Shown here piece by piece: positions 19,393 to 52,727 of a stretch of DNA of 64,000 nt. Below the pieces are notes generated by a model that was not told where the DNA came from, made no database searches, and was given only the letters and a program-made list of their open reading frames with translations. The position numbers and the translations under genes are program-made. Source of the DNA: a virus (taxonomy: Duplodnaviria > Caudoviricetes); the IMG/VR virus record IMGVR_UViG_3300028833_000077. The stretch is one strand, 5' to 3'. Position 1 is the stretch's first letter, and each line of letters opens with the position of its first letter.

Positions 19393-22300
19393 ATGAATAT
19401 GGAAGAAACCAATTGGAATAAGACAACTGACCTGAAGACTGACCCTAGGGCATGCTGCACTAAGGAGTTCAGTCCCTACAATCAGGTGTATAGGAGTGTT
19501 GTGGTCATCCCTGAGGTTCAGGACAACCACACCATACTCAGGCAGGACATGCTGCCCAGCAAGGACACCAAGTACATCATCAGATATAACATGACCCTCA
19601 ACGGTCTGACTGTTACCATCCCTGAGGACTGCATTCTTGAGTTTGATGGAGGATGCATCACAGGAGGCACTCTGGTAGGCAATGATACCCTTGTACTGAA
19701 TGTGGGTGATGTTGACTGCATCCTTGACAATGTGACCAAGGAAGGCACATGGCGTACCATTGAGTATAACAAGGATGATACTGATGCCATGCTTGCCGAG
19801 AAGGCAGACAAGGCAGACACATACACCAAGGAGGAGGTGGATGGACTCATTGGCACACAAGACACTTCATACGATGATAAGCTTCAGGACTACTACACCA
19901 AGAGGCAGTCAGACATCAAGTATCAGGAGCTGGAGGACATGATTGAGCCTAAGGCAGACAAGGACTCCCTCTCTGATGTGGCTTTCTCTGGAAGATATGA
20001 TGACCTCCTGAACCAGCCTACTATTCCCTCACTGTCAGGATATGCCAAGGAGAGCTGGGTGAATGACAAGATTGAGGACATGCTTGGTGTGGATGCATCG
20101 GGTATATCGGCACTCAAGGCCATTCTTGAGGATGGCAGCACTGCATCAGGGATACTGTCACACATTGCACGTAAGGCAGATTCCAATGATGTGTATAACA
20201 AGACTGAAGTGGATGGGATTAGGGAGGCACTGGAACTCTCAATAAGCAAAAAGGTAGACCAGGCTTCTACTTACAGCAAGCCTGATGTGGACTTGAAGCT
20301 TGGTGCAAAGGCCAATGCATCATCACTCTCTAGAGTGGCTACCTCAGGACTCTATAGTGACCTCATCAATAAACCAACTATACCTACTGTACCCAGAAAA
20401 GTATCAGCTTTCTTCAATGATGCGGGATACCTTACAAAGGCCGATGCAAATACAGTCTCTGATTTGACGTGGACTGCCACTGCCAAGGCAAAGGCATGGA
20501 GTAGGCTGTTCAGGCAAGCAGTGCCAGAACAGGGCTCAAGCTGTATTGTGACCTTAGGCTGTAAGCGAATAGATATGGTGGCAGTATTCTTGGTGAACAC
20601 CAAGTACAATACTGGTGGGCATGTCATCCGACTGGCCTGCAGCAGCAATAATCCTTCGATGGTAGGATATGAAAACGAGCTAGCCTGTAGGGTAGTGTCT
20701 AATAAAGAAGGTAATTCCTACTTTGAGATTCAGGATAACATACTGACTCCCATAGGTCACAATATGACGCAGTGGTTTTGTAGTGTGCTTGAGCTTGGCG
20801 AAGGAGAACTCACTCCATACTATGAATTTACAGATGGTAGTACCATAGAGGATGGCTATATTGAAAGTAATGCTGTAATGGCAGACCAATCTAGTAATAG
20901 CTCTGCGATTGATAATATCTATATTGCAGGTGACCAGTTCTTTGCAAGAAGACAGGATGGCAGTACTATTACTATTGGTAACGCTGCAGTACAGCCTGAT
21001 TGGAATCAAACCAATACTTCTGCTGCTGACTACATCAAGAACAAGCCTATCATACCTTCATTGCCCAACTTGGCAAGAGTGGCAACCACAGGTTCCTACA
21101 ATGACCTTTCAGATAAGCCTGCTGTTCCTTCGTTACCTGCTCTAGCAAGAGTAGCGACTACAGGGTCATACAATGACTTGTCCAATAAGCCTACTATTCC
21201 CACAGTACCTACAAATGTGAGTGCTTTCACCAATGATGCAGGATATCTTACAAGACATCAGGACATCTCAACCAACTACTACTTCCAGCAGTTGGTCAAT
21301 AGAGTCAATGCTTTGGAGACAGCTGTTGCAGAACTCAAGAACTTCTTCTGTAAGTTGACCTTGACTAATGGTACAGTAGTAAATGTTGAAGGTGAGGGTA
21401 CATTGACTGCTGCTATGGTGACTACACCATACAGAACTACAGTTGCAAGTGCAGAGATTGGAACATTATGCACTAGTATTGGTGCTGGTGCATTCGCTTT
21501 CTGTACAAACCTTACAGATGTGAGTGTAGCAAGTAGTGTAACCAGTATAGGAGCAGAAGCTTTTGAAGGTTGCAGCAGTCTAACACACATTAATCTCATT
21601 CTTACAGGAATCACATCTATAGGTAATAATGCCTTTAGTGGTTGTACACAACTTACGTCTGCAGATTTGCCCAATTCTGTGACAAGTGTTGGTACTGGTG
21701 CTTTCAGTGACTGTACAAGCCTTACCCGTTGTGTGCTAGGATTTGGTGTATCAGAGATCAAAGATAGTACATTCCAAGGCTGCTCTAGTCTTTCCAATAT
21801 AACCATACCTAACAATATCACTAAGATAGGAGAAGAAGTCTTTAGTGGCTGTGCTGGTCTTAAGAATGTTACCATTCCGAATAGTATCACATCCATTGGT
21901 AATTCTGCTTTTGAAAACTGTACTGGTCTCATTGGAATAACCTTGAGTACTGCACTGACTACTATAGCTAGCAGTACTTTCAGCGGTTGTACTAAGCTTA
22001 ATAATGTTACGATTCCTGCAAATGTTACAAGTATAGGTACTTCTGCCTTCAGTGACTGCAGCAGTCTGACAAGCATAACTATACCTGACAGTGTGACTTC
22101 TATTGGCAGCAATGCTTTTAAAGGATGCAGTGGTCTCACAAGCATTATACTGCCTGAGAATATTACAAGTATTGGCAGTAGTGCTTTTGCAAATTGCAGC
22201 ACTCTTGTAAGTGTCACCTGTCATCCTTTGAGTGTTCCGACATTAGGGGCAAGTGTCTTTGCTAGTAATGCATCAGGCCGCAAGATATATGTACACCTGA

Positions 22301-23049
22301 GTAGCCTCAATGCCTACAAGACTGCCACCAACTGGAGCAGCTATGCAAGTGACATTGAGTCTATTGAAGAGGATTCCTACTTCTGCAGGATTACATTGAA
22401 CACTGGAGAGACAGCAGAGATCCAAGGTAGTGGTGAGCTTACCTCAGGGGCTTTAGGTGATTATACTAAGGCAAACATTACAAGTGCCCAGATAGGCCCA
22501 TTGTGTACAAGCATAGGTACTAATGTATTCAGCAATGCCTACAGTCTTACAGATGTCTATATACATAATAGTGTCACAAGCATTGGCCAGAATGCCTTTG
22601 AGAGCTGCTCAATACTTTCAAGAGTAAATAGTAGTACAGAAGGTGAGGTCAATATTCCTAGCAGTGTTACAAGTATTGGTGCTAGAGCATTCTATGGATG
22701 TTCTCGTATCACCACCTGTAACTTGGGTGATAGTGTCACCAGTATTGGAAACTACGCCTTCTTTGGTTGTGCCCGTAAGACAAGTGCTAATCCTGATATA
22801 TACTCAGGTATGACAAGTGTAGATATTCCTGCAACAGTGGCTGATATTGGCATGGATGCCTTCAAGGCATGTAATTGTCTTGAAACAGTCATACTAAGAG
22901 CTGCTACACCTCCATATTTGGGTAATTACAATGTTTTTGATAGCAATGCTAGCGGCAGAAAGATATATGTACCTGCAAGTAGCGTAGATACTTATAAGAC
23001 GACTCAGGGATGGAATCCTTATGTGAGTGACATTTATCCAATAGCATAA
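19393..23049 (+). CDS. Fibre/adhesin with BspA-type (LRR_5) leucine-rich repeats
   Basis: Many IP.SVTSIG..AF..C..L repeats; LARVATTGSYNDL and VSAF.NDAGYLT fibre repeats. Confidence 0.85.
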   Translation: MNMEETNWNKTTDLKTDPRACCTKEFSPYNQVYRSVVVIPEVQDNHTILRQDMLPSKDTKYIIRYNMTLNGLTVTIPEDCILEFDGGCITGGTLVGNDTLVLNVGDVDCILDNVTKEGTWRTIEYNKDDTDAMLAEKADKADTYTKEEVDGLIGTQDTSYDDKLQDYYTKRQSDIKYQELEDMIEPKADKDSLSDVAFSGRYDDLLNQPTIPSLSGYAKESWVNDKIEDMLGVDASGISALKAILEDGSTASGILSHIARKADSNDVYNKTEVDGIREALELSISKKVDQASTYSKPDVDLKLGAKANASSLSRVATSGLYSDLINKPTIPTVPRKVSAFFNDAGYLTKADANTVSDLTWTATAKAKAWSRLFRQAVPEQGSSCIVTLGCKRIDMVAVFLVNTKYNTGGHVIRLACSSNNPSMVGYENELACRVVSNKEGNSYFEIQDNILTPIGHNMTQWFCSVLELGEGELTPYYEFTDGSTIEDGYIESNAVMADQSSNSSAIDNIYIAGDQFFARRQDGSTITIGNAAVQPDWNQTNTSAADYIKNKPIIPSLPNLARVATTGSYNDLSDKPAVPSLPALARVATTGSYNDLSNKPTIPTVPTNVSAFTNDAGYLTRHQDISTNYYFQQLVNRVNALETAVAELKNFFCKLTLTNGTVVNVEGEGTLTAAMVTTPYRTTVASAEIGTLCTSIGAGAFAFCTNLTDVSVASSVTSIGAEAFEGCSSLTHINLILTGITSIGNNAFSGCTQLTSADLPNSVTSVGTGAFSDCTSLTRCVLGFGVSEIKDSTFQGCSSLSNITIPNNITKIGEEVFSGCAGLKNVTIPNSITSIGNSAFENCTGLIGITLSTALTTIASSTFSGCTKLNNVTIPANVTSIGTSAFSDCSSLTSITIPDSVTSIGSNAFKGCSGLTSIILPENITSIGSSAFANCSTLVSVTCHPLSVPTLGASVFASNASGRKIYVHLSSLNAYKTATNWSSYASDIESIEEDSYFCRITLNTGETAEIQGSGELTSGALGDYTKANITSAQIGPLCTSIGTNVFSNAYSLTDVYIHNSVTSIGQNAFESCSILSRVNSSTEGEVNIPSSVTSIGARAFYGCSRITTCNLGDSVTSIGNYAFFGCARKTSANPDIYSGMTSVDIPATVADIGMDAFKACNCLETVILRAATPPYLGNYNVFDSNASGRKIYVPASSVDTYKTTQGWNPYVSDIYPIA

Positions 23050-23924: not shown

Positions 23925-25070
23925 TCATTGTTTTCCCCCACCTGTCGAGAGATAGCTGGGGGTTTTTGATATAGCATCTACCACAGTCTCATCAAGCAGC
24001 TTGGCATACACAGCTTCTGTAATCCTTGTGGATGAATGCCCGCATATCCTTGAAACTATCTTCATGTCCACCCCTTCATTGAGCAACATGGTGGCTCCAG
24101 TGTGCCTTGCCCAATGCGTGCTCACAGGCTTGTCTATGCCTGCTGCCTGTGCAACAACCTTGAGATACTCATTGTACTTCACATTGGAAATGATGGGCAG
24201 CTTGTTCCCATACTTCTCCAACACCTCAAGAGCCTTATGGTGCATGGGTATGGTGAAGGGCTTGGCAGTCTTGATCCTGCTTCCCATGTAGACCTTCATG
24301 CCCTTGACAGTGCTGATGCCTCCCACATCAAAGTCCTTGAGGTCTGTGTAGCTCAGGCAGGTGTATGTCTGAAACACAAATACATCCCTGACTCTCTCAA
24401 GACTCTTGGTGGGCAGCTTCACATCCATCAGATGCCTGAACTCCTCTGGAGTGAGGTACTTCTCTATGCCTCTGCCTTGCTTGTTCCTGTCTATGGAGAG
24501 TCTGCTGTAGGGGTTCCTCTGCATAAGTCCTTCCTCTATGGCATCCCTGATGAAGGAGTTGAGGAACCTGTGGTAATTGTTCCACTTGGAGTAGGGCTCC
24601 ATCCCCTTGGCAGTCAAATACTCATCATACTTGATGATGTTCTCCTCAGTAATAGCCTCCACCTCCACGATCCCTCCCCACTCTGAGAAGAGCCTTATGA
24701 ACCTGTCATACCTCTCTTGGGTGTCCTTCTCCTTGCCATACTTCCTCACCCTTGCCCTTGCCTTGCAGAAGTCTATGAAGGATGTACCCTTGGGCTTGAG
24801 CCTCTCATTGAGTGTGTCAAGACTACCAGAGGCCAATGCCTCCCTGACCCTTACAAGAAGATCATTGAGTATCTGGCTCAACTGCATGGCATCAGGGCAG
24901 TTGACGATGCAGCCATTCCTCCATTGGTTGGGATAGAGTGATATTCCTGTGGAGATGAACTTGCACTTTCCCTTCAGTGACACCCTGAGTTCCAATGCAG
25001 CCTTTCTCTTCTGTGTGGCTGTTTTCCTCCTGTCATATATGAATGTTATCTTGGGCTGTTTGTTAATCAT
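23925..25070 (-). CDS. int: Tyrosine integrase (Bacteroidetes type: arm-binding, SAM and catalytic domains)
   Basis: H.ARHT, GHS..T..Y motifs, RD.F.F..YT.L.Y.D, N-terminal ELRVS...ISTGI. Confidence 0.9.
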   Translation of the reverse strand: MINKQPKITFIYDRRKTATQKRKAALELRVSLKGKCKFISTGISLYPNQWRNGCIVNCPDAMQLSQILNDLLVRVREALASGSLDTLNERLKPKGTSFIDFCKARARVRKYGKEKDTQERYDRFIRLFSEWGGIVEVEAITEENIIKYDEYLTAKGMEPYSKWNNYHRFLNSFIRDAIEEGLMQRNPYSRLSIDRNKQGRGIEKYLTPEEFRHLMDVKLPTKSLERVRDVFVFQTYTCLSYTDLKDFDVGGISTVKGMKVYMGSRIKTAKPFTIPMHHKALEVLEKYGNKLPIISNVKYNEYLKVVAQAAGIDKPVSTHWARHTGATMLLNEGVDMKIVSRICGHSSTRITEAVYAKLLDETVVDAISKTPSYLSTGGGKQ

Positions 25071-25330
25071 CCTAAATAAAGTTTAATTATTTGTTAATGG
25101 GTGGTTTTAGTATACAAAGGTGTACAACTTTCTTAAGAGGGGTGTACAGAATTTGTATAGTTTTCAATGTGATGTGTACAGTATTTGTATAGTGTTCTAC
25201 CCTCCCAGCTGAGGGGACTGTAAGCAAAGAATCTTCAAGAGGCAGCTGTCTCCAGCTGTATATAATAAGAGTATCAGGAAGCAGACTGATTTGTCATAAC
25301 TCCCTGATACTGTGAATTCAAGCCCCTAAG

Positions 25331-25402
25331 TAGTCGATAGGGGAATCGAACCCCTATGCCAAGATTGAGAATCTTGTATCCTAACCATTAGATGAATCGA
25401 CC
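25331..25402 (-). tRNA. tRNA-Glu (CTC)
   Basis: GGTCGAT/ATCGACT acceptor stem, CAAGA-TTCTCAA-TCTTG anticodon arm, GGTTCGATTCC T-arm. Confidence 0.93.
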
Positions 25403-25433
25403 GCGCTGCATTCTCTTGGAGTAATACCCCCGG

Positions 25434-25452
25434 TTGCGGAAGGAGGGGGATT
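25434..25452 (-). mobile_element. Candidate attP core: tRNA-Ser-like 3' fragment AATCCCCCTCCTTCCGCAA
   Basis: T-arm 3' half plus acceptor strand with no 5' half; lies between arm-type repeats beside the integrase. Confidence 0.55.
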
Positions 25453-25561
25453 ATTACCTACCAGCCATGACTCTTGCCTAATTCTCAGTCAATCAGGGAG
25501 ATGGAGTCTTCTGCTATGGAGCCTTAGTCATCATGTGTACAGAATATGTATAGTTTTAACC

Positions 25562-25699
25562 TTATTTGAAGTCACTCTTCCTCAGTGGTTGGTTCATTAG
25601 GGGAATCCTCTTGCCATCCTTCACCATGTATATCATCACTTCCGCACCATTCTCAACAGCACGGTAGTATTCCTCCAGCATCTTCTCATCTATGTCCAT
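25562..25699 (-). CDS. 45-aa hypothetical protein
   Basis: MDIDEKMLEEYYRAVENG...; TATCTTTG promoter box at about 25717. Confidence 0.55.
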   Translation of the reverse strand: MDIDEKMLEEYYRAVENGAEVMIYMVKDGKRIPLMNQPLRKSDFK

Positions 25700-25948
25700 A
25701 TTCCTTCTTTTTGTGGCAAAGATACAAAATAAAACCCATACATATCATACCCCTGAACCATAAAAGTTGTTAAAGTTTTCAAGGTTTAAGGGAAAACATT
25801 AGGTTGAATTAGGAAAAATGTATATCTTTGTTGCCGAAATCAGTTAGGTAAAATACACAATCATAACTGACTGATATTTAGGCAAATGAATTGCCCGTCT
25901 TCAATAGGTACTTTAAACAGCATTGTAAACATTTAAACTTTAACGACT

Positions 25949-27376: not shown

Positions 27377-27676
27377 ATGACATACGAGGAGATAGTCAGG
27401 AAAGTGGCGAAGGAGACTGGGTATGATGCCAAGTTCGTCAATAAGGTGTACAAGGCCTATTGGCAGACCATCAGGACATACATCAAGTCCCTACCTCTCA
27501 AGGAAGACCTTACCGATGAGGAGTTCATGAAGCTCAGGCCCAATGTCAATATTCCTTCTCTGGGCAAGCTGAATGTGACTCTTCAGAGGTATAGGAACAT
27601 GAAGAAGCATAATCAGATATTAAATGAGATAAAAGCAAGGAAGCATGACAGAGAAGCAGAAGATGGCAATTGCTGA
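27377..27676 (+). CDS. HU/IHF-like protein
   Basis: IVRKVAKETG...V.KVY...VNIPSLGKL. Confidence 0.7.
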   Translation: MTYEEIVRKVAKETGYDAKFVNKVYKAYWQTIRTYIKSLPLKEDLTDEEFMKLRPNVNIPSLGKLNVTLQRYRNMKKHNQILNEIKARKHDREAEDGNC

Positions 27677-37178: not shown

Positions 37179-38393
37179 ATGACATTTCATTTAACAAAAG
37201 ACCAGTTGAAGAAAGACTTGTATGTTGCTTACTATGATGCACGAAAACACAAGTCCCATAAGCCTTATGTCAAATATTTTGAAGCAGACCTTACCACAGA
37301 ATTAGATACACTCTGCAATGAACTGTGGAACAGGACTTATACAGCCCAGCCCTCAAAGTGCTTTATAATAGACTATCCTAAAAAACGGGAAGTATTTGCA
37401 GCCCGTTTCCGTGATAGAATTGTACACCATCTCTTATTCAATTACATCCATGCTATGCTGGAAAGGACTTTTATTAGGGACAGTTATAGCTGTATCAAGG
37501 GCAGAGGCACCCATGACGGTATAAGAAGACTCTATAAGCACATTAAGCAGGAAAGCCAGAATTATACAGTACCCTGTTATATCATGAAACTAGACATACG
37601 GGGATATTTTATGCACATTAACCGTAGTAAGCTTTTGCAGATAGCCCTCAAATCTTTAAGAGAGATGGGTGAACATAAAATCGGGAAGACAGGCTATAAC
37701 GGACAGGTATTTGGTAAAGGCATACTGTGGAAAGAAGCTGTTGATATGGGCTTTGTCAGCTGGCTGACAGAAAAGATTATCATGCTAAATCCTAAGACCT
37801 GGTGTGAGATGGCTGGCAGCATAGAGGACTGGAAAGGCTTGGATAGGAGTAAAAGTCTCTTTTACACAAAGGAGGGCTGCGGACTTCCTATTGGCAATTT
37901 AACAAGCCAACTGTTCAGTAATGTCTATCTGAATGTCTTGGATCAGTTTATGAAAAGAGTACTCAAGTGCCGGCATTACGGAAGGTATGTGGATGACTTT
38001 TATATTGTGAATTGTGATAGGAAATGGCTGCTTGGGCTGGTTGGAAGGATTGAGAATTTTCTTGCAGATAATCTTGAATTGAAGCTACACAGAGGCAAAC
38101 TTATACTACGTAGTGTACAGACAGGTATAGAGTTCTTGGGTGCTTTTTTAAAGCCATACAGGAAGTATTTTGCCAACAGTTCTCTTAGACGGGTATGCCA
38201 GAGACTTTCAGAAATCAGACATAGTGATGCGGAGACTTCTTGGAGAACCGTAAATTCCTATCTTGGAATCATGGGCCATTATTCTACCTTCTACTTAAGG
38301 TGGAGGCTGTTCATGAGGTGTTGCTATCTTAGAATAGCACCAATAGAAGTAGGCTCATCCAAGATGTTAAGACCATATTGTATAAATGTTTAA
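37179..38393 (+). CDS. DGR reverse transcriptase
   Basis: RDRIVH, KLDIRGYF, GLPIGNLTSQ, RYVDDF, FLG. Confidence 0.95.
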   Translation: MTFHLTKDQLKKDLYVAYYDARKHKSHKPYVKYFEADLTTELDTLCNELWNRTYTAQPSKCFIIDYPKKREVFAARFRDRIVHHLLFNYIHAMLERTFIRDSYSCIKGRGTHDGIRRLYKHIKQESQNYTVPCYIMKLDIRGYFMHINRSKLLQIALKSLREMGEHKIGKTGYNGQVFGKGILWKEAVDMGFVSWLTEKIIMLNPKTWCEMAGSIEDWKGLDRSKSLFYTKEGCGLPIGNLTSQLFSNVYLNVLDQFMKRVLKCRHYGRYVDDFYIVNCDRKWLLGLVGRIENFLADNLELKLHRGKLILRSVQTGIEFLGAFLKPYRKYFANSSLRRVCQRLSEIRHSDAETSWRTVNSYLGIMGHYSTFYLRWRLFMRCCYLRIAPIEVGSSKMLRPYCINV

Positions 38394-45631: not shown

Positions 45632-48600
45632 ATGGAGAACATAAGATGGAACAAGTGCCAGACTCCACTGGAGGAGCTCTGTTGCACTGTAGAGGATAAG
45701 GTAATCAGATTTCAAGATACACCAAAGGAAGTTCAGGAGAATTTCTGGGATTTCATCAACAATGTGCCCTTCATCAGATGGATGATTTCCCCTGACAGGC
45801 CATTGGTGTCTGAGCTCCCAAGGGATGAGCAGGGTAGGGCAATCATTGATGTGACCAAGCCGCCTATACTGGAGGATACGGAGTTCTTCAGGCAAATGGC
45901 TTTCAAGTGGCAAGAAGTAAGACAGTATACCTCATTAAGGCCAAATAGGAATCCTCAGAGTGACTTTGGCAAATGGCTTCTTGAAGAGAGGAAGAGGAGT
46001 TGGGATGGACTGGTGAATCCCAACACAGGCATGTGGATAACTGGAGACCAGTACTTCTTCCTGAACTACTGCCCCATTCAGCTTATCAGGAAGGATGAGA
46101 CTGGCAAGAACAACCGTGTCATAGACTTTCCTGATTTTTGGGATGGCCACTTCCTGATTTATCATTACCTACAGAAGGCCAGACAGTCTGGGCATCATGC
46201 AGCAGAGCTTGCATCGCGTGGTAAAGGTAAGGCACACCCCTATAGCCAGACAGTAATGACTCCTGATGGACAGAAACTGTGGCGAGACATCAAGGTAGGG
46301 GACCTCCTGTATGATGAGAGGGGTGGAACCACTAGAGTGATTGTCATTCCTTTTGATGATGTAGCACCAGTCTATGAGCTTACTCTTGCAGATGGCAGAA
46401 AGGTCAGGTGCTCTGAAGGGCATCTTTGGAATGTGTACTGGCATGGATGGAGCAACAATGAGATAGTCACTATAGACACAGCCAAGGTACGTGACAAATA
46501 TGTAACCAGTAGGAAGATATGTCCCAGGAACCCAAAGGGTATAGAGTACCATATGAGCATTCCTGCTTGTGACGAGGTTGAGATGCCCTACAGAGAAGTC
46601 CCTATTGACCCATATACATTAGGAGTACTCTTGGGAGATGGAAGCTTCAGGTCACAAACTGCCAAGAACTATGCCAGACTTACCAAGACCGTAGAGGATT
46701 GGGAGGAAATGAAGGACCATATTCCATATGACTGGGAGAGGGTAAACAAGGGTAGAGATATAATCATCCGTTCAGAAGGTATAGTGGCTATACTACAAGA
46801 GCTTGGCCTTTGGGGAAAGTTGTCTACAGAGAAGCATATACCAGAGTGCTACATCAACAACTCCATACATGTCAGGAAAGAGCTCCTCCGTGGATTGATG
46901 GATACTGATGGAAGTATGCATGAGGCAAGGATTGAGCTGGACTTGAGTTCCTATCAGCTCATCCAAGATATCATCAGGATATGCCAGTCTTTGGGATATA
47001 GCTACAGGCTCCACAGTAGGGTGGGAAAATACAAATCCAATGGAGTGACTCATGTGTGCAATACTTCATACAGGTTGAAAATCTACACACAGAAGATAAG
47101 AGGCTACTTGTCCAGGAAGAATGCCATGCTTGATGCTAGAAGCAAAAGCAACTATGCTAACAGTAAGATACGAGGCATAAAGATAATCAATGTCGAATAT
47201 GTGGGTACAGAAAGATGCAAGTGTGTCACTGTGGACAATCCTACCCACCTTTATCTGATAGGTGACTATATTGTTACCCACAACTCATACTGTGGTGCAG
47301 AGCTGCTGACAAAGAGATTCCTTTTTGGAGAGAGTACCCTTGTCAGGAAAAAGGTGCAGTGTGTGGTGACAGCAGCGGATAGGAAGTATATCTATGGTGC
47401 CAACCAGATACTCAATATGTTCTGCAGCAATGTTGACTTTATTGCAGCCAACACTCAATTCCCGTCAAGCAGGCTTGTAGACTCTGCACAGTCACTGACT
47501 TGGGTGTCTGGCTACAAAGACAAGACTGGTGTAAGAAAGGGTTCTGGAAACAGTCTTATGGGTATTACCTCAGGAGATGACCAGTCCAAGTTGAATGGTT
47601 CCCGTGGTGTGCTGTACCTAATTGAGGAGGCAGGTATCTTCAAGAACCTCATGAGCCTGTACCAGATGATACGGCCATCAGTGGAGGATGGTACCTCTGT
47701 CTATGGGCAGATATTTGCATATGGCACCAGTGGTGATGATATGTCTGACTTTACATCCCTTCAGGAGATTATGTACAACCCGAGAGGTTACAATATGCAC
47801 CCACTGCCTAATGTGTATGACAAAGAGGGACAGGGCAGGCCAGAGTTCACCTTCTTCTATCCAGCATACATGAACCGTTCGGGGTGTATGGACAAGGATG
47901 GTAACTCAGATATTACAAAAGCATTACTTGAGATATTGATGGATAGGTACAATGTCAAGTACAATTCTACTGACATCAATGCCATCACCAAACGTGTGTC
48001 CCAGTATCCCATCACCCCTCAAGAGGCCATTATCAGGTCACATGGCAGCATCTTCCCAGTCACTGAACTCAATGAGAGACTGAACCAAATAGACAACAAT
48101 CCCAATGAATATGATGATGTCTATGTTGGCAATCTGGTGATGAATTCCAAGGATGGCAGTGTAGAGTTCAAGCCTACTTCAGACCAACCTATCAGGGAAT
48201 TTCCAACCAAGGACAATAAAGTGGTGGGTGCAATAGAGATATACTGTATGCCACAGAAGGGGCCTGACGGCAAGATTCCTCCTGGGAGATATATTGCAGG
48301 TGCCGACCCATTCATCAATGATACCGCCAATACCATGTCATTGGGTTCCTTCTTGATGCTGGACACATGGACAGACACACTGGTTATGGAATATACAGGA
48401 AGACCTATGTTTGCTGATGACTATTATGAGATATGTAGGTTGGCTTGTTTGTTCTACAATGCCACAGTACTCTTTGAGGCAAACAAAAAAGGTTACTTCC
48501 CATACTTCACCCAGAAGAACAGCTCACATCTGCTGGCTGATACTCCCGAGTACCTGCTAGACAAACAGCTCATCAAGGGCTTGGGATACGGCAATACTAG

Positions 48601-48994
48601 GAAAGGTGTAACCACTACAGTACCCATCAAGAACTATGGCTTTGGACTCATTAGGGACTGGCTGCTGAAACCTGTTGTGAAGATTGTCAAGAATGAGCAG
48701 GGAGAGGATGAAGAGATAACCATATCCAATCTATACAACATCAGGAACAGGGCTTTGTTGAAGGAGCTGATACTGTATAACCCACAAATCAATGTAGACC
48801 GTATCATGGCTTTGGTGATGCTGATGATATACAGAGAGGAGAAGATGGCCTTATTCCAAGGCAACTTGAAGCAGGAATTACAACTCTCTGAGATGGAGGC
48901 AGCTGAATATTGGGATAAGAACTATCCTGGGAAGAAGGATGTGTATGGCAGTAAAAAGTTTGACAGCTATTCCTGGGATAAGGGCAATTTCTAA
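45632..48994 (+). CDS. terL: Terminase large subunit with intein
   Basis: Walker A SRGKGK|S split by the intein, Walker B LIEEAG, nuclease IAGADP...DRIMAL. Confidence 0.93.
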   Translation: MENIRWNKCQTPLEELCCTVEDKVIRFQDTPKEVQENFWDFINNVPFIRWMISPDRPLVSELPRDEQGRAIIDVTKPPILEDTEFFRQMAFKWQEVRQYTSLRPNRNPQSDFGKWLLEERKRSWDGLVNPNTGMWITGDQYFFLNYCPIQLIRKDETGKNNRVIDFPDFWDGHFLIYHYLQKARQSGHHAAELASRGKGKAHPYSQTVMTPDGQKLWRDIKVGDLLYDERGGTTRVIVIPFDDVAPVYELTLADGRKVRCSEGHLWNVYWHGWSNNEIVTIDTAKVRDKYVTSRKICPRNPKGIEYHMSIPACDEVEMPYREVPIDPYTLGVLLGDGSFRSQTAKNYARLTKTVEDWEEMKDHIPYDWERVNKGRDIIIRSEGIVAILQELGLWGKLSTEKHIPECYINNSIHVRKELLRGLMDTDGSMHEARIELDLSSYQLIQDIIRICQSLGYSYRLHSRVGKYKSNGVTHVCNTSYRLKIYTQKIRGYLSRKNAMLDARSKSNYANSKIRGIKIINVEYVGTERCKCVTVDNPTHLYLIGDYIVTHNSYCGAELLTKRFLFGESTLVRKKVQCVVTAADRKYIYGANQILNMFCSNVDFIAANTQFPSSRLVDSAQSLTWVSGYKDKTGVRKGSGNSLMGITSGDDQSKLNGSRGVLYLIEEAGIFKNLMSLYQMIRPSVEDGTSVYGQIFAYGTSGDDMSDFTSLQEIMYNPRGYNMHPLPNVYDKEGQGRPEFTFFYPAYMNRSGCMDKDGNSDITKALLEILMDRYNVKYNSTDINAITKRVSQYPITPQEAIIRSHGSIFPVTELNERLNQIDNNPNEYDDVYVGNLVMNSKDGSVEFKPTSDQPIREFPTKDNKVVGAIEIYCMPQKGPDGKIPPGRYIAGADPFINDTANTMSLGSFLMLDTWTDTLVMEYTGRPMFADDYYEICRLACLFYNATVLFEANKKGYFPYFTQKNSSHLLADTPEYLLDKQLIKGLGYGNTRKGVTTTVPIKNYGFGLIRDWLLKPVVKIVKNEQGEDEEITISNLYNIRNRALLKELILYNPQINVDRIMALVMLMIYREEKMALFQGNLKQELQLSEMEAAEYWDKNYPGKKDVYGSKKFDSYSWDKGNF
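46232..47284 (+). mobile_element. 351-aa class-3-type intein with LAGLIDADG endonuclease
   Basis: Starts AHPY, has HLW, CVTVD, IVTHN|S; LGVLLGDG and LRGLMDTDG motifs. Confidence 0.9.
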
Positions 48995-50359: not shown

Positions 50360-52727
50360 ATGGCTGGTAAATTAGGTAAATTTCAAAAGCAGACATTTAG
50401 TTATTGGAAAGGCGATACATTGAAGAAGCACCACATGGGTGCCCTCTTCCTTCGTAAGCCTCAGATGGCAACTGACCTGATGGTTCAGCTGCTTGCCTGG
50501 CATAAAGGTAAGACACTGAACACATTCCTGTCACAGTTCCCCACAAAGACTTTTGACACGGATGATGAGTACACATGGCAGATCATTGGCAGTGCCCGTA
50601 GGAACTATGCACTGGTAGAGGCAAGGGACATTGATGGTAATGTCATTGATGAGAACTACCCCAACAATGTTGGTATTGGTGGTGAGCCATTCTACCTGGT
50701 GTTCAAGGAGGACTGGATTGGTGACTCCGAGATTGTGGTTGGTGAACTCAATGAGCTCTATCCCATGAGGCACCTTGAGGGCCATGGCCGCAATGAAGGC
50801 TCAAACACCGTGTACAGGGTTTCAGCCTGGGGTTCTGTCCGTGGTGGTATTCCTGTAGAGGAACTGCTTCCTGGCAAGAGGTTCTCAGTTGAGTATGCAC
50901 CTGTTGAGGGTGAGCTGTCTCGTAAGGCAGGTACCGTAAGGTTCTCTAGCCCCATCAGCATGCGTAATGAGTTCTCTCACATCCGTATCCACACCAAGGT
51001 ATCTGGTGCCCTCCTGAATGACAAGGTGGCATTTGGTGTACCTGTAGTCCGTGAGACTCCCAATGGAGGTAAGAAGGATGTGGTGGACATGTGGATGCAT
51101 GAGGTTCAGTGGCAGCTGGAGCAGCAGTGGGATGAGTACAAGAACTACATCCTTGCATTTGGCCGTAGCAACAGGGATGCCAATGGTGAGTACCATGACT
51201 TTGGTAAGTCAGGTGAGGCCATCCGCACTGGTGCAGGTTTGTATGAGCAGATGGAGTATGGTAACACAGACTTCTACAACACCTTCTCACTGAAGAGGTT
51301 GATGGAGAACATCTACAACATCAGCCGTGCAAACCTTGACTTCAATCAGCGTAACTTCATCATCAAGACTGGTGAGATGGGTGCTATCCAGTTCTCTAAG
51401 GCAGCTATGACTGAAGGTTCAGGTTGGAGTCCTATCACTTATGAGTACAGTGCCTCTGAGCTGGGCATCATGTCTCCCACCACAAGCAAGATGACTCCTC
51501 ATGGAGGCGCATTCAAGATGGTTGCTCCTCAGGTGACTGAGTTCATTGCTCCTAACGGTGCATATGTGAAGATTGATGTTGACAGCTACTATGATGATCC
51601 TGTCCGCAACAAGATTCAGCATCCTCTTGGAGGTCCTGCCATGTCTTACCGTTATGACATCTTTGACATTGGTACCATGGATCAGCCCAACATCTTCAAG
51701 TGTGCTGTCAAGGGTCAGGAAGGTGACTTTACGAGTTATGAGTGGGGATTAGCGGCCTAGAGTGGCCTTTACGACATTTCTGAGTTCCCACCCTTCCTCA
51801 GGAACAGAATAAGGAAAATAAACGAGGTTAATTGCTGGAAGTTCCTTAGAGCTTCAAAAGGTTTTTACAAGGTTTCAAACATTTAAATATGGAAACAGAA
51901 GAGATTTGGAAAAGCTTACCCGAGTATGTTGGCATAGAGGTTAGCAACTTAGGCAGAGTAAGAAAGAACACAAGAAAACATCATAACGATGTAATCAGTG
52001 AGTTCTGTAAAGATAGAGATGGTTACTGTAGATGCACAGTATTCCTTCCAGACGGGAGAAAGACTTCAGCACCAGTACACAGGTTAGTAGCAAAAGCGTT
52101 CATTGACAATCCTGATAATAAGACCTGTGTAAACCATAAGGATAATGATAGGACAAACAATAGAGTTGAGAATCTAGAATGGGTGACACCAAAGGAAAAT
52201 GTCAGACATTCATTCTTGCATGGTAACAGAAAGGTACATAAGGAGGTTCCCACTAATACAGTGCTGACAGACTTCCAAGTGTTCCAAATAGACAAACTGA
52301 GAACCATATACTCAGTCAGTCAGATAGCCAAGCTGTTCAATATCAAATATACCACTCTAAAGAACATCATAAGAAAAGTAAAAACCAGAAGATTGGATAA
52401 CCAGCAGCCAAGCATATATCAAGATATATATGAAGGTTCAACGACTATCCCGGAAGGGAGTAAGGCTTAAGTAAGTCTGAAATGCCTCGCCTGCACAGAG
52501 TGCAGTGAAGATATAGTCTGAACTTCCATGAAAGTGGAAGAGAGTACATGGAAACGATGTATTCGCAACACATAAATGTCAGAAATCCATTTACAGGACA
52601 AATGGGCAATCCTAACATGAGTCACGATGAAGACTCCGCAACAATCCATAAGTTTACAACAACTGGTGTTTGCGTGTTAGACCCAACCAGAACGATGAGT
52701 TTCATCCCCAGTATCTTACAGGGATAG
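50360..52727 (+). CDS. Major capsid protein, two exons (50360-51749 and 52579-52727; 512 aa spliced)
   Basis: Exon 2 reads RNPFTGQ...HDEDSA...DPTRTMS.IP, a crAss-like MCP C-terminus; junction gives EWG-F-RNPF. Confidence 0.9.
51750..52578 (+). mobile_element. Group I intron in the MCP gene
   Basis: IGS at 51776-51791; P AATTGCTGGAA, Q AACCAGCAG, R GTTCAACGACTA, S AAGATATAGTC; terminal G. Confidence 0.92.
51889..52470 (+). CDS. Intron-encoded NUMOD4-HNH homing endonuclease
   Basis: EIWK..VSN.GRV, VHRLVA.AF, VNHKD..R.NN...NLEW. Confidence 0.9.
   Translation: METEEIWKSLPEYVGIEVSNLGRVRKNTRKHHNDVISEFCKDRDGYCRCTVFLPDGRKTSAPVHRLVAKAFIDNPDNKTCVNHKDNDRTNNRVENLEWVTPKENVRHSFLHGNRKVHKEVPTNTVLTDFQVFQIDKLRTIYSVSQIAKLFNIKYTTLKNIIRKVKTRRLDNQQPSIYQDIYEGSTTIPEGSKA

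Follow-up and report, generated by a model that had tools for sequence, protein, structure and literature searches.

The stretch analysed here is a 64,000-nucleotide (nt) piece of viral DNA (Duplodnaviria; Caudoviricetes; IMG/VR record IMGVR_UViG_3300028833_000077), referred to below as the window. Our subject is a segment of it, at 23925-25699, in which a tyrosine integrase gene lies beside short direct repeats, one complete tRNA gene and a fragment of another. An earlier note, made from the sequence alone, had read this segment as the integrase and apparently intact phage attachment site (attP) of a temperate crAss-like phage, directed at a tRNA-Ser gene. Judged by its head, portal and large terminase (TerL) matches, the window is part of a crAss-like phage (Crassvirales): its major head protein (50360-51760) shares ~55% identity with the head proteins of the Bacteroides phages DAC15 and DAC17, of Kolpuevirus and of uncultured cr116_1, the best head-protein matches fall in the family Steigviridae, and the portal and TerL match phrog_6547 and phrog_6681 respectively. 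The best public holder of the sequence is a sheep-gut metagenome, and relatives at 90-95% identity occur in bovine and other gut runs from ~10 studies. A megablast of 10 kilobases (kb) of the window against a phage collection gave no match, and a metagenome scan gave no relative above 67% identity.

The features at the locus, given from the integrase outwards, are as follows.

23925..25070, minus strand: tyrosine integrase gene, 381 amino acids (aa) (PF17293, PF13102, PF00589; phrog_1)
25111..25127, minus strand: proximal P' half-sites TGTACA / TATACA, about -57 and -46 from the integrase start, matching the -58 site of relatives
25142..25160, minus strand: predicted P' arm-type site, a half-site pair 11 nt apart at -90/-79 from the integrase start
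25174..25192, minus strand: second predicted P' arm-type site, a half-site pair at -122/-111 from the integrase start
25270..25311, minus strand: hairpin just past tRNA-Glu, with a 13-base-pair stem (-21.8 kcal/mol, z = -3.3)
25330..25402, minus strand: complete tRNA-Glu(CTC) gene (ARAGORN; Rfam RF00005, 59.6 bits)
25403..25433, minus strand: host-like spacer of 31 nt between tRNA-Ser and tRNA-Glu, within a contiguous match to L054, an uncultured Prevotella contig
25434..25452, minus strand: tRNA-Ser(GCT) 3' fragment, the proposed attP core (crossover region), holding an exact 17-mer of tRNA-Ser(GCT) genes
25535..25553, minus strand: predicted P arm-type site, a half-site pair; relatives place a P arm, built from their own motif, equally far from the fragment

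The integrase and its substitute arginine

The integrase called in the earlier note is confirmed by its domains, and the protein has the build of an arm-binding (N-terminal), a SAM-like core-binding and a catalytic domain (PF17293, 25.5 bits against a cut-off of 22.6; PF13102, 38.2 bits; PF00589, 54.7 bits). In an alignment of 121 homologues, about 56-96% identical, the residues K267, H319, R322, H345 and Y355 are invariant throughout (121/121). The earlier note had also singled out the motif CLSYTD, which puts S240 at the place of the usual first arginine of tyrosine recombinases, as a point for comparison with active Bacteroidetes integrases. Position 240 is S or A in 114 of the 121 homologues and R in seven; R265 is found in exactly the 114 that lack R240, and the residue there is not an arginine in exactly the seven that have it.

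Such a pattern has a precedent. In what PMC8138268 relates of the IntCTnDOT subgroup (citing Kim 2010), conservation of the first arginine is weak, in that the integrases of NBU1 and NBU2 have it and that of CTnDOT lacks it and uses a downstream arginine instead. The complete mutual exclusion of R240 and R265 fits this published substitute arginine, and the missing R240 is therefore not a defect; as far as its residues can tell, the integrase is not catalytically dead. R265 is the predicted stand-in for the first arginine, an assignment drawn from covariation rather than from alignment to IntDOT. The comparison raised by the earlier note thus comes out as S240 paired with R265, of the CTnDOT type as described in PMC8138268.

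Domain architecture and arginine pattern together would place the integrase in the IntCTnDOT subgroup. Its three-domain build is that of the Bacteroidetes enzymes IntDOT (CTnDOT), IntN1 (NBU1) and IntN2 (NBU2), and the likeness extends to the weakly conserved first arginine with a substitute downstream, on the account of the subgroup in PMC8138268. The difference is one of setting, as the window integrase belongs to a ~100-kb crAss-like phage and not to a conjugative or mobilizable element; its closest homologues sit on 100-kb contigs (P0028, P0083 and others). To go by a title cited in PMC8138268, the insertion site of NBU1 is the 3' end of a tRNA-Leu gene.

Arm-type repeats and the layout of attP

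The three TGTAYAG-type repeats that the earlier note placed at 25142, 25174 and 25535 are real: their 19-mer pattern occurs at these positions only within the 64 kb, and none of 100 shuffled sequences reached three matches. The P' site at 25142..25160 is unchanged in the 90-95% relatives while neighbouring bases are altered, and its counterpart in more distant relatives is their own repeat at -91/-80. On the other side of the tRNA block, the P half-site lies 90 nt from the tRNA-Ser fragment. We interpret the arm sites and core as a predicted P-core-P' attachment site. An imperfect inverted repeat reported to bracket the fragment does exist, but folds no better than shuffled sequence (z = -0.18), and one of its arms lies in the host-derived spacer; as its stability is not above chance, we dropped it as evidence.

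In lambda-type P-core-P' sites at tRNA 3' ends, as here, arms stand on either side of a core that has the same sequence as the 3' end of the host tRNA gene, the gene is made whole again by the phage copy on insertion, and host-identical DNA extends past the crossover. What differs here is that a complete host-identical tRNA gene and a hairpin stand between the core and the P' arm. The core-to-P' distance, which is not fixed, is accordingly ~240 nt in the window, compared with ~155 nt in an element inserted in a bacterial genome (G516, described below) and ~50 nt in simple sites. The Haemophilus phage HP1 has an attachment site with more than one tRNA segment.

A host tRNA locus copied into attP

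The earlier note had taken the 19-nt tRNA fragment as the host-like part of attP. The fragment is present, and 17 of its letters (minus strand of 25434-25452) are exactly the 3' end of tRNA-Ser(GCT), from the T loop to the discriminator. The host-like DNA is, however, 123 nt long, and the whole tRNA-Glu gene within it had been overlooked: the block at 25330-25452 joins the final 19 nt of tRNA-Ser through the spacer to an entire tRNA-Glu, which sits between the tRNA-Ser fragment and the integrase-side repeats. Matching the fragment to Bacteroidales tRNA-Ser genes, a check suggested in the earlier note, found the 17-mer in > 100 genomes, mostly Prevotella, Alistipes, Paludibacteraceae and other Bacteroidales, and indicated a Prevotellaceae host. 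The phage tRNA-Glu is 100% identical to the gene directly 3' of tRNA-Ser(GCT) in many Prevotellaceae genomes, and the uncultured Prevotella contig L054 matches without a break from 25452 to 25329 (96.8% over 125 nt). These identities point to the attP block as a copy of a Prevotellaceae tRNA-Ser(GCT)-tRNA-Glu(CTC) locus and to Prevotellaceae as the probable host.

The source sample itself bears on this. One of its contigs matches 25374-25452 (at least 79 nt) without mismatch at a depth of ~50, compared with 10-14 for the phage contigs, and at 25452 a loose end continues into what looks like the T arm of a full tRNA-Ser gene. Since the matching contig is deeper and this loose end exists, a bacterium with the identical site was present and more abundant than the phage. 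A second loose end, at 25329, marks host identity that stops at the final base of tRNA-Glu.

In the five host genomes checked, tRNA-Glu(CTC) is a single-copy gene. The phage itself uses GAG heavily, for 71% of the Glu codons across 13 of its large genes. Every host locus inspected has its terminator, a hairpin and T-run, after tRNA-Glu, at the same place as the phage hairpin. Some other Prevotellaceae loci (L053, L106, L112, L013) carry a tandem double tRNA-Glu(CTC) after tRNA-Ser(GCT); because no tRNA-Ser fragment lies between the copies, these show no sign of phage insertion. At one further locus (L094 5503-5526, = G005:C1), a 24-nt exact copy of the tRNA-Glu(CTC) 3' end lies inverted ~150 nt downstream of the gene and, by our reading of the sequence, falls within an apparent coding region.

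The same design in related crAss-like phages

Homologous integrases in viral contigs each have their own half-site motif, repeated ~11 nt apart upstream of the gene, and in these relatives a tRNA-Ser 3' fragment lies between two groups of repeats. In a wider scan of 77 loci, ~30, including contigs of 93-123 kb, have the gene order of the window, in which a DUF6549 gene and then the integrase precede attP, and six small conserved genes lead on to those for portal, terminase and head. Because this order is common to them, the ~30 contigs represent crAss-like phages with an integrase at a fixed place, and across them the integrase is kept at 56-63% identity.

The spacing of the site is kept as well. 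Counted from the integrase start, relatives have their P' half-sites near -91, -80 and -58 (-90, -79 and -57 in the window), and the proximal P half-site lies 90-95 nt from the start of the tRNA fragment in 11 relatives, or 12 phages with the window. The repeat motif, on the other hand, changes along with the integrase sequence while its positions are kept. Fixed spacing and a motif that changes with the integrase are what arm-type sites predict, and the tRNA-Ser fragment rather than tRNA-Glu is therefore the likely core.

The arrangement of the window, from the Ser(GCT) fragment through the spacer and the whole tRNA-Glu to the hairpin, returns in two relatives, L160 (a 99-kb contig) and L165, with other arm motifs, so that the design of Ser fragment plus tRNA-Glu is found in three phage lineages with different arm motifs. 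The best-matching host loci of their spacers are L123/L051 and L074, and that of the window is L054. Other variants of attP contain an entire tRNA-Lys, or an entire tRNA-Val behind a tRNA fragment; for the latter (L179/L185), the nearest host matches in 301 genomes, at one mismatch, are tRNA-Arg genes with no tRNA-Val nearby.

Two further arrangements were seen among these sites. The crAss-like L163 and L164 have two copies of a tRNA-Ser 3' fragment 54 nt apart, at ~-218 and -164 from the integrase start, within one attP. The attP of the 123-kb crAss-like L166 (~-170 to -110, counted likewise), when compared with the G516 junction (L142 2400-2470), has in common with it the 3' end of tRNA-Ser(TGA) and the ~18 first letters downstream. 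These common letters suggest either that the host of L166 is close to G516 or that L166 shares an origin with the G516 mobilizable element.

Inserted relatives

Several relatives of the integrase stand in bacterial DNA. In the bacterial genome G516, a 1-Mb contig (C8) carries a 58%-identical integrase after a full tRNA-Ser(TGA), with arm repeats of the L001 type between the two, and the genome G119 is arranged alike. The G516 element is a mobilizable element, since its genes include a relaxase and a NikA-like gene but none for a crAss-like head; its right junction (attR) was not found within 18 kb, nor by arm motif anywhere in the genome. The window head protein has no match in five genomes holding integrase relatives.

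A metagenome contig, L152, is closer to the case at hand. Its order is an OmpH-like gene, an M20 peptidase, a full tRNA-Ser(GCT), tRNA-Glu(CTC), a hairpin, arm repeats and the first 203 codons of an integrase, after which bacterial ATPase and PHP genes follow. The integrase part is 64% identical to that of the window as protein, and at the DNA level the sequence running from the arms into the gene is 71% identical. From this order and these identities, L152 is a decayed scar at the very locus predicted for the window phage.

Another contig, L172, begins with 9.7 kb of bacterial-type genes (a pectate lyase with dockerin, CotH, HepT) that match no crAss-like locus, and continues with a promoter in front of a full tRNA-Ser(CGA), which is followed by a hairpin and one arm pair; next come an integrase gene that has lost its first 22 codons and then a DUF6549 gene. 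Its far side is collinear with the 108-123-kb crAss-like contigs L185 and L166. The internal deletion in L172 speaks for a grounded prophage and against an assembly chimera. The joins to bacterial DNA that the earlier note had suggested looking for are thus found for relatives, L172 and L152, at bacterial tRNA-Ser genes; for the window phage itself none was recovered.

A proposed mechanism of integration

From the domains and catalytic residues, the repeats, the host identity, the conserved layout and the inserted relatives, we infer how arm binding, crossover, operon rescue and tRNA expression might proceed. The integrase would act in the two-handed, lambda-like manner of a tyrosine recombinase from the CTnDOT/NBU subgroup. 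With its N-terminal domain it would bind the TGTAYAG arms (one P pair, at least two P' pairs and the proximal half-sites), and its catalytic domain, with R265 replacing the absent first arginine, would exchange strands within 25434-25452 with the 3' end of host tRNA-Ser(GCT). Insertion would split the host tRNA-Ser, and the 3'-end copy brought by the phage would restore the gene. At the left junction, the host promoter should then be followed by the restored tRNA-Ser, by the spacer, tRNA-Glu and hairpin of the phage, and by the P' arms and integrase, and the right junction should hold the P arm and the displaced 19-nt fragment before a host tRNA-Glu now cut off from its promoter. Because the host copy would lose its promoter on insertion, we propose that the carried copy keeps this single-copy tRNA expressed.

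In the free phage, a promoter-like box at 25717-25724 (see below) may express tRNA-Glu(CTC), which would serve the GAG-rich phage genes. The host-like block could stem from imprecise excision; that it agrees with different hosts in the three lineages suggests that it was captured or exchanged more than once. A tentative extension, which seems to us quite possible, short of being probable, gives attP two jobs. By carrying a full copy of the host tRNA transcription unit beyond the crossover (spacer, single-copy tRNA-Glu(CTC) and terminator-like hairpin), it would rebuild the whole Ser-Glu operon on insertion and leave no important tRNA orphaned, and from a phage promoter it would supply tRNA-Glu(CTC) for the GAG-rich phage genes during lytic growth; at least three lineages with different arm specificities would have acquired or renewed the block from different Prevotellaceae hosts.

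Weighing the alternatives

In our view the segment is likely to represent, in its joined (attP) form, the module by which a temperate crAss-like phage integrates into its hosts, the Prevotellaceae of the ruminant gut. The temperate lineage in excised form suggested by the earlier note is supported in this respect by the host tRNA match, the intact catalytic residues and the inserted relatives. A number of results weigh on the other side. No attL (left junction) or attR of the window phage was found in public contigs: the 123-nt shared block exceeds the length of the assembler word, so that all of them break there and the junction is unreadable. In the five host genomes with a matching tRNA locus, integrase matches are distant (at most 32% identity) and there is no close head protein, and across 401 genomes of the genus the head protein has a single distant match (29% identity). 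Neither a repressor nor an excisionase was recognised among the open reading frames (ORFs) at ~23.0-23.98 kb and 25.5-33 kb of a window that is itself part of a genome. The phage hairpin lacks a canonical T-run, and a terminator scan called nothing after tRNA-Glu. The ~240 nt from core to P' might weaken assembly of the recombination complex, a spacing that L160 and L165 share. As for the inserted relatives, a short junction contig could in principle be a chimera at shared tRNA letters, which L172 too might be, and, since both integrase genes are damaged, L172 and L152 show past insertion and not present activity. Candidate joints listed at attP had short sides and were set aside.

Integration could also be real and the tRNA-Ser fragment a mere passenger, with exchange elsewhere in the 123-nt block, for example at the tRNA-Glu(CTC) 3' end, or through homologous recombination by the host. 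In favour of this, host identity in the source sample stops at the last tRNA-Glu base (the loose end at 25329), the arms and integrase of L152 come after tRNA-Glu and not tRNA-Ser, and 123 nt suffices for recombination of the RecA type. Yet relatives without tRNA-Glu keep the tRNA-Ser fragment 90-95 nt from the P arm, and the G516, G119 and L172 elements stand directly after tRNA-Ser. Nor is the end of tRNA-Glu a general boundary, because in L160 host-like letters seem to run ~18 nt past it. We therefore think this account rather unlikely.

It is unlikely, too, that the module is a relic or has some other use, such as resolution of genome dimers or plasmid-like maintenance, with no prophages now and a tRNA-Glu that is there for translation. 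The failure to recover a junction, repressor or excisionase is what one would expect under such an account, as is the heavy use of GAG by the phage, and crAss-like phages often have tRNA genes and persist without integration (PMC10983915, PMC8375218). What speaks against it is a full-length integrase with all its catalytic residues, kept across ~30 crAss-like contigs, arm half-sites unchanged in the 90-95% relatives while their neighbours changed, a core that matches the host exactly, and the existence of inserted relatives. Finally, the repeats might be operators for a regulator of integrase transcription instead of arm sites, given that the P' repeats (-122 to -46) overlap the promoter region expected upstream of the integrase start. 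We find this highly improbable, as one copy lies 465 nt upstream, beyond the tRNA block, at a core distance conserved in relatives, the motif co-varies with the integrase sequence, and the protein has an arm-binding domain; the roles of operator and arm site are in any case compatible and not exclusive.

A small reading frame, a promoter box and neighbouring genes

Two further features lie at and beyond the P arm.

25562..25699, minus strand: 45-aa ORF, probably coding, with no counterpart in relatives
25717..25724, minus strand: TAnnTTTG box of the Bacteroidetes -7 type, reading towards the 45-aa ORF, the P arm/attP and the tRNA

Both had been described in the earlier note as an ORF with its own promoter, and both exist as described; the box is one that we take to be a promoter motif from general knowledge of Bacteroides promoters, and relatives carry a TAnnTTTG-type box upstream of their P arm. 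The ORF is probably coding because six co-occurring base changes in the 90-95% relatives alter a single residue, conservatively. Family searches, a protein atlas and the related loci yielded no homologue, family or look-alike for it, and as a directionality factor it is a candidate without any support. A weak HU/IHF-like match lies at 27377-27676; HU/IHF-like proteins are common in crAss-like phages.

Elsewhere in the window, three genes deserve mention. At 37179-38393 there is a reverse transcriptase gene (phrog_1423, E = 5e-80), which is probably part of a diversity-generating retroelement. The TerL ORF (45632-48994) is unusually long at 1120 aa: terminase families match its residues 191-567 and 547-1084 separately, and its first part has additional P-loop matches of helicase-loader and primase types, so it could be a fusion or hold an inserted element. 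Two genes from the integrase, 19393-23049 encodes a 1218-aa protein with BspA-type leucine-rich repeats; because it has no match in the related crAss-like loci (L151, L157-L231), it looks like lineage-specific cargo beside the integration module.

Integration and persistence in Crassvirales

crAss-like phages are among the most abundant gut viruses, and how they persist is debated, with a carrier state, phase variation and a phage-plasmid state all under discussion. Crassvirales have mostly been described as persisting without integration (PMC10983915, PMC8375218, a 2026 preprint), Carjivirus communis in a phage-plasmid state (PMC10983915) and crAss001 in a carrier state (PMC8375218). These two belong to the same order and pose the same question of persistence but, unlike the clade of the window, they lack integrases and were not found integrated. 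A mouse-gut catalogue annotates integrases, excisionases and repressors in some groups of Crassvirales, with integrase modules rare in Steigviridae (PMC13503771), and crAss-like prophages have been described in pig-gut genomes (PMC12454387) and epsilon-like ones in Parabacteroides (PMC11054128). As here, these studies concern crAss-like integrase genes or prophages; they differ in resting at the level of catalogue or annotation, without arm sites, tRNA core or substitute arginine. The main text of Yutin 2021 does not mention integrases, and we found no description in the literature of a crAss-like attachment site with the anatomy seen here, of which the local peculiarity is the captured whole tRNA-Glu gene.

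The present module is laid out in its parts, from the arm sites and core to the substitute catalytic arginine and a host target that can be named, and it is common to a ruminant-gut clade with inserted relatives. It carries a host prediction, namely Prevotellaceae with a tRNA-Ser(GCT)-tRNA-Glu(CTC) locus. The integrase and attP form a pair that is a possible genetic tool for Prevotella, as NBU2, which inserts at the 3' end of a tRNA-Ser gene, is for Bacteroides. The captured whole tRNA illustrates a route by which phage tRNA genes can arise from attachment sites. With such a module in hand, true lysogeny in Crassvirales becomes directly testable.

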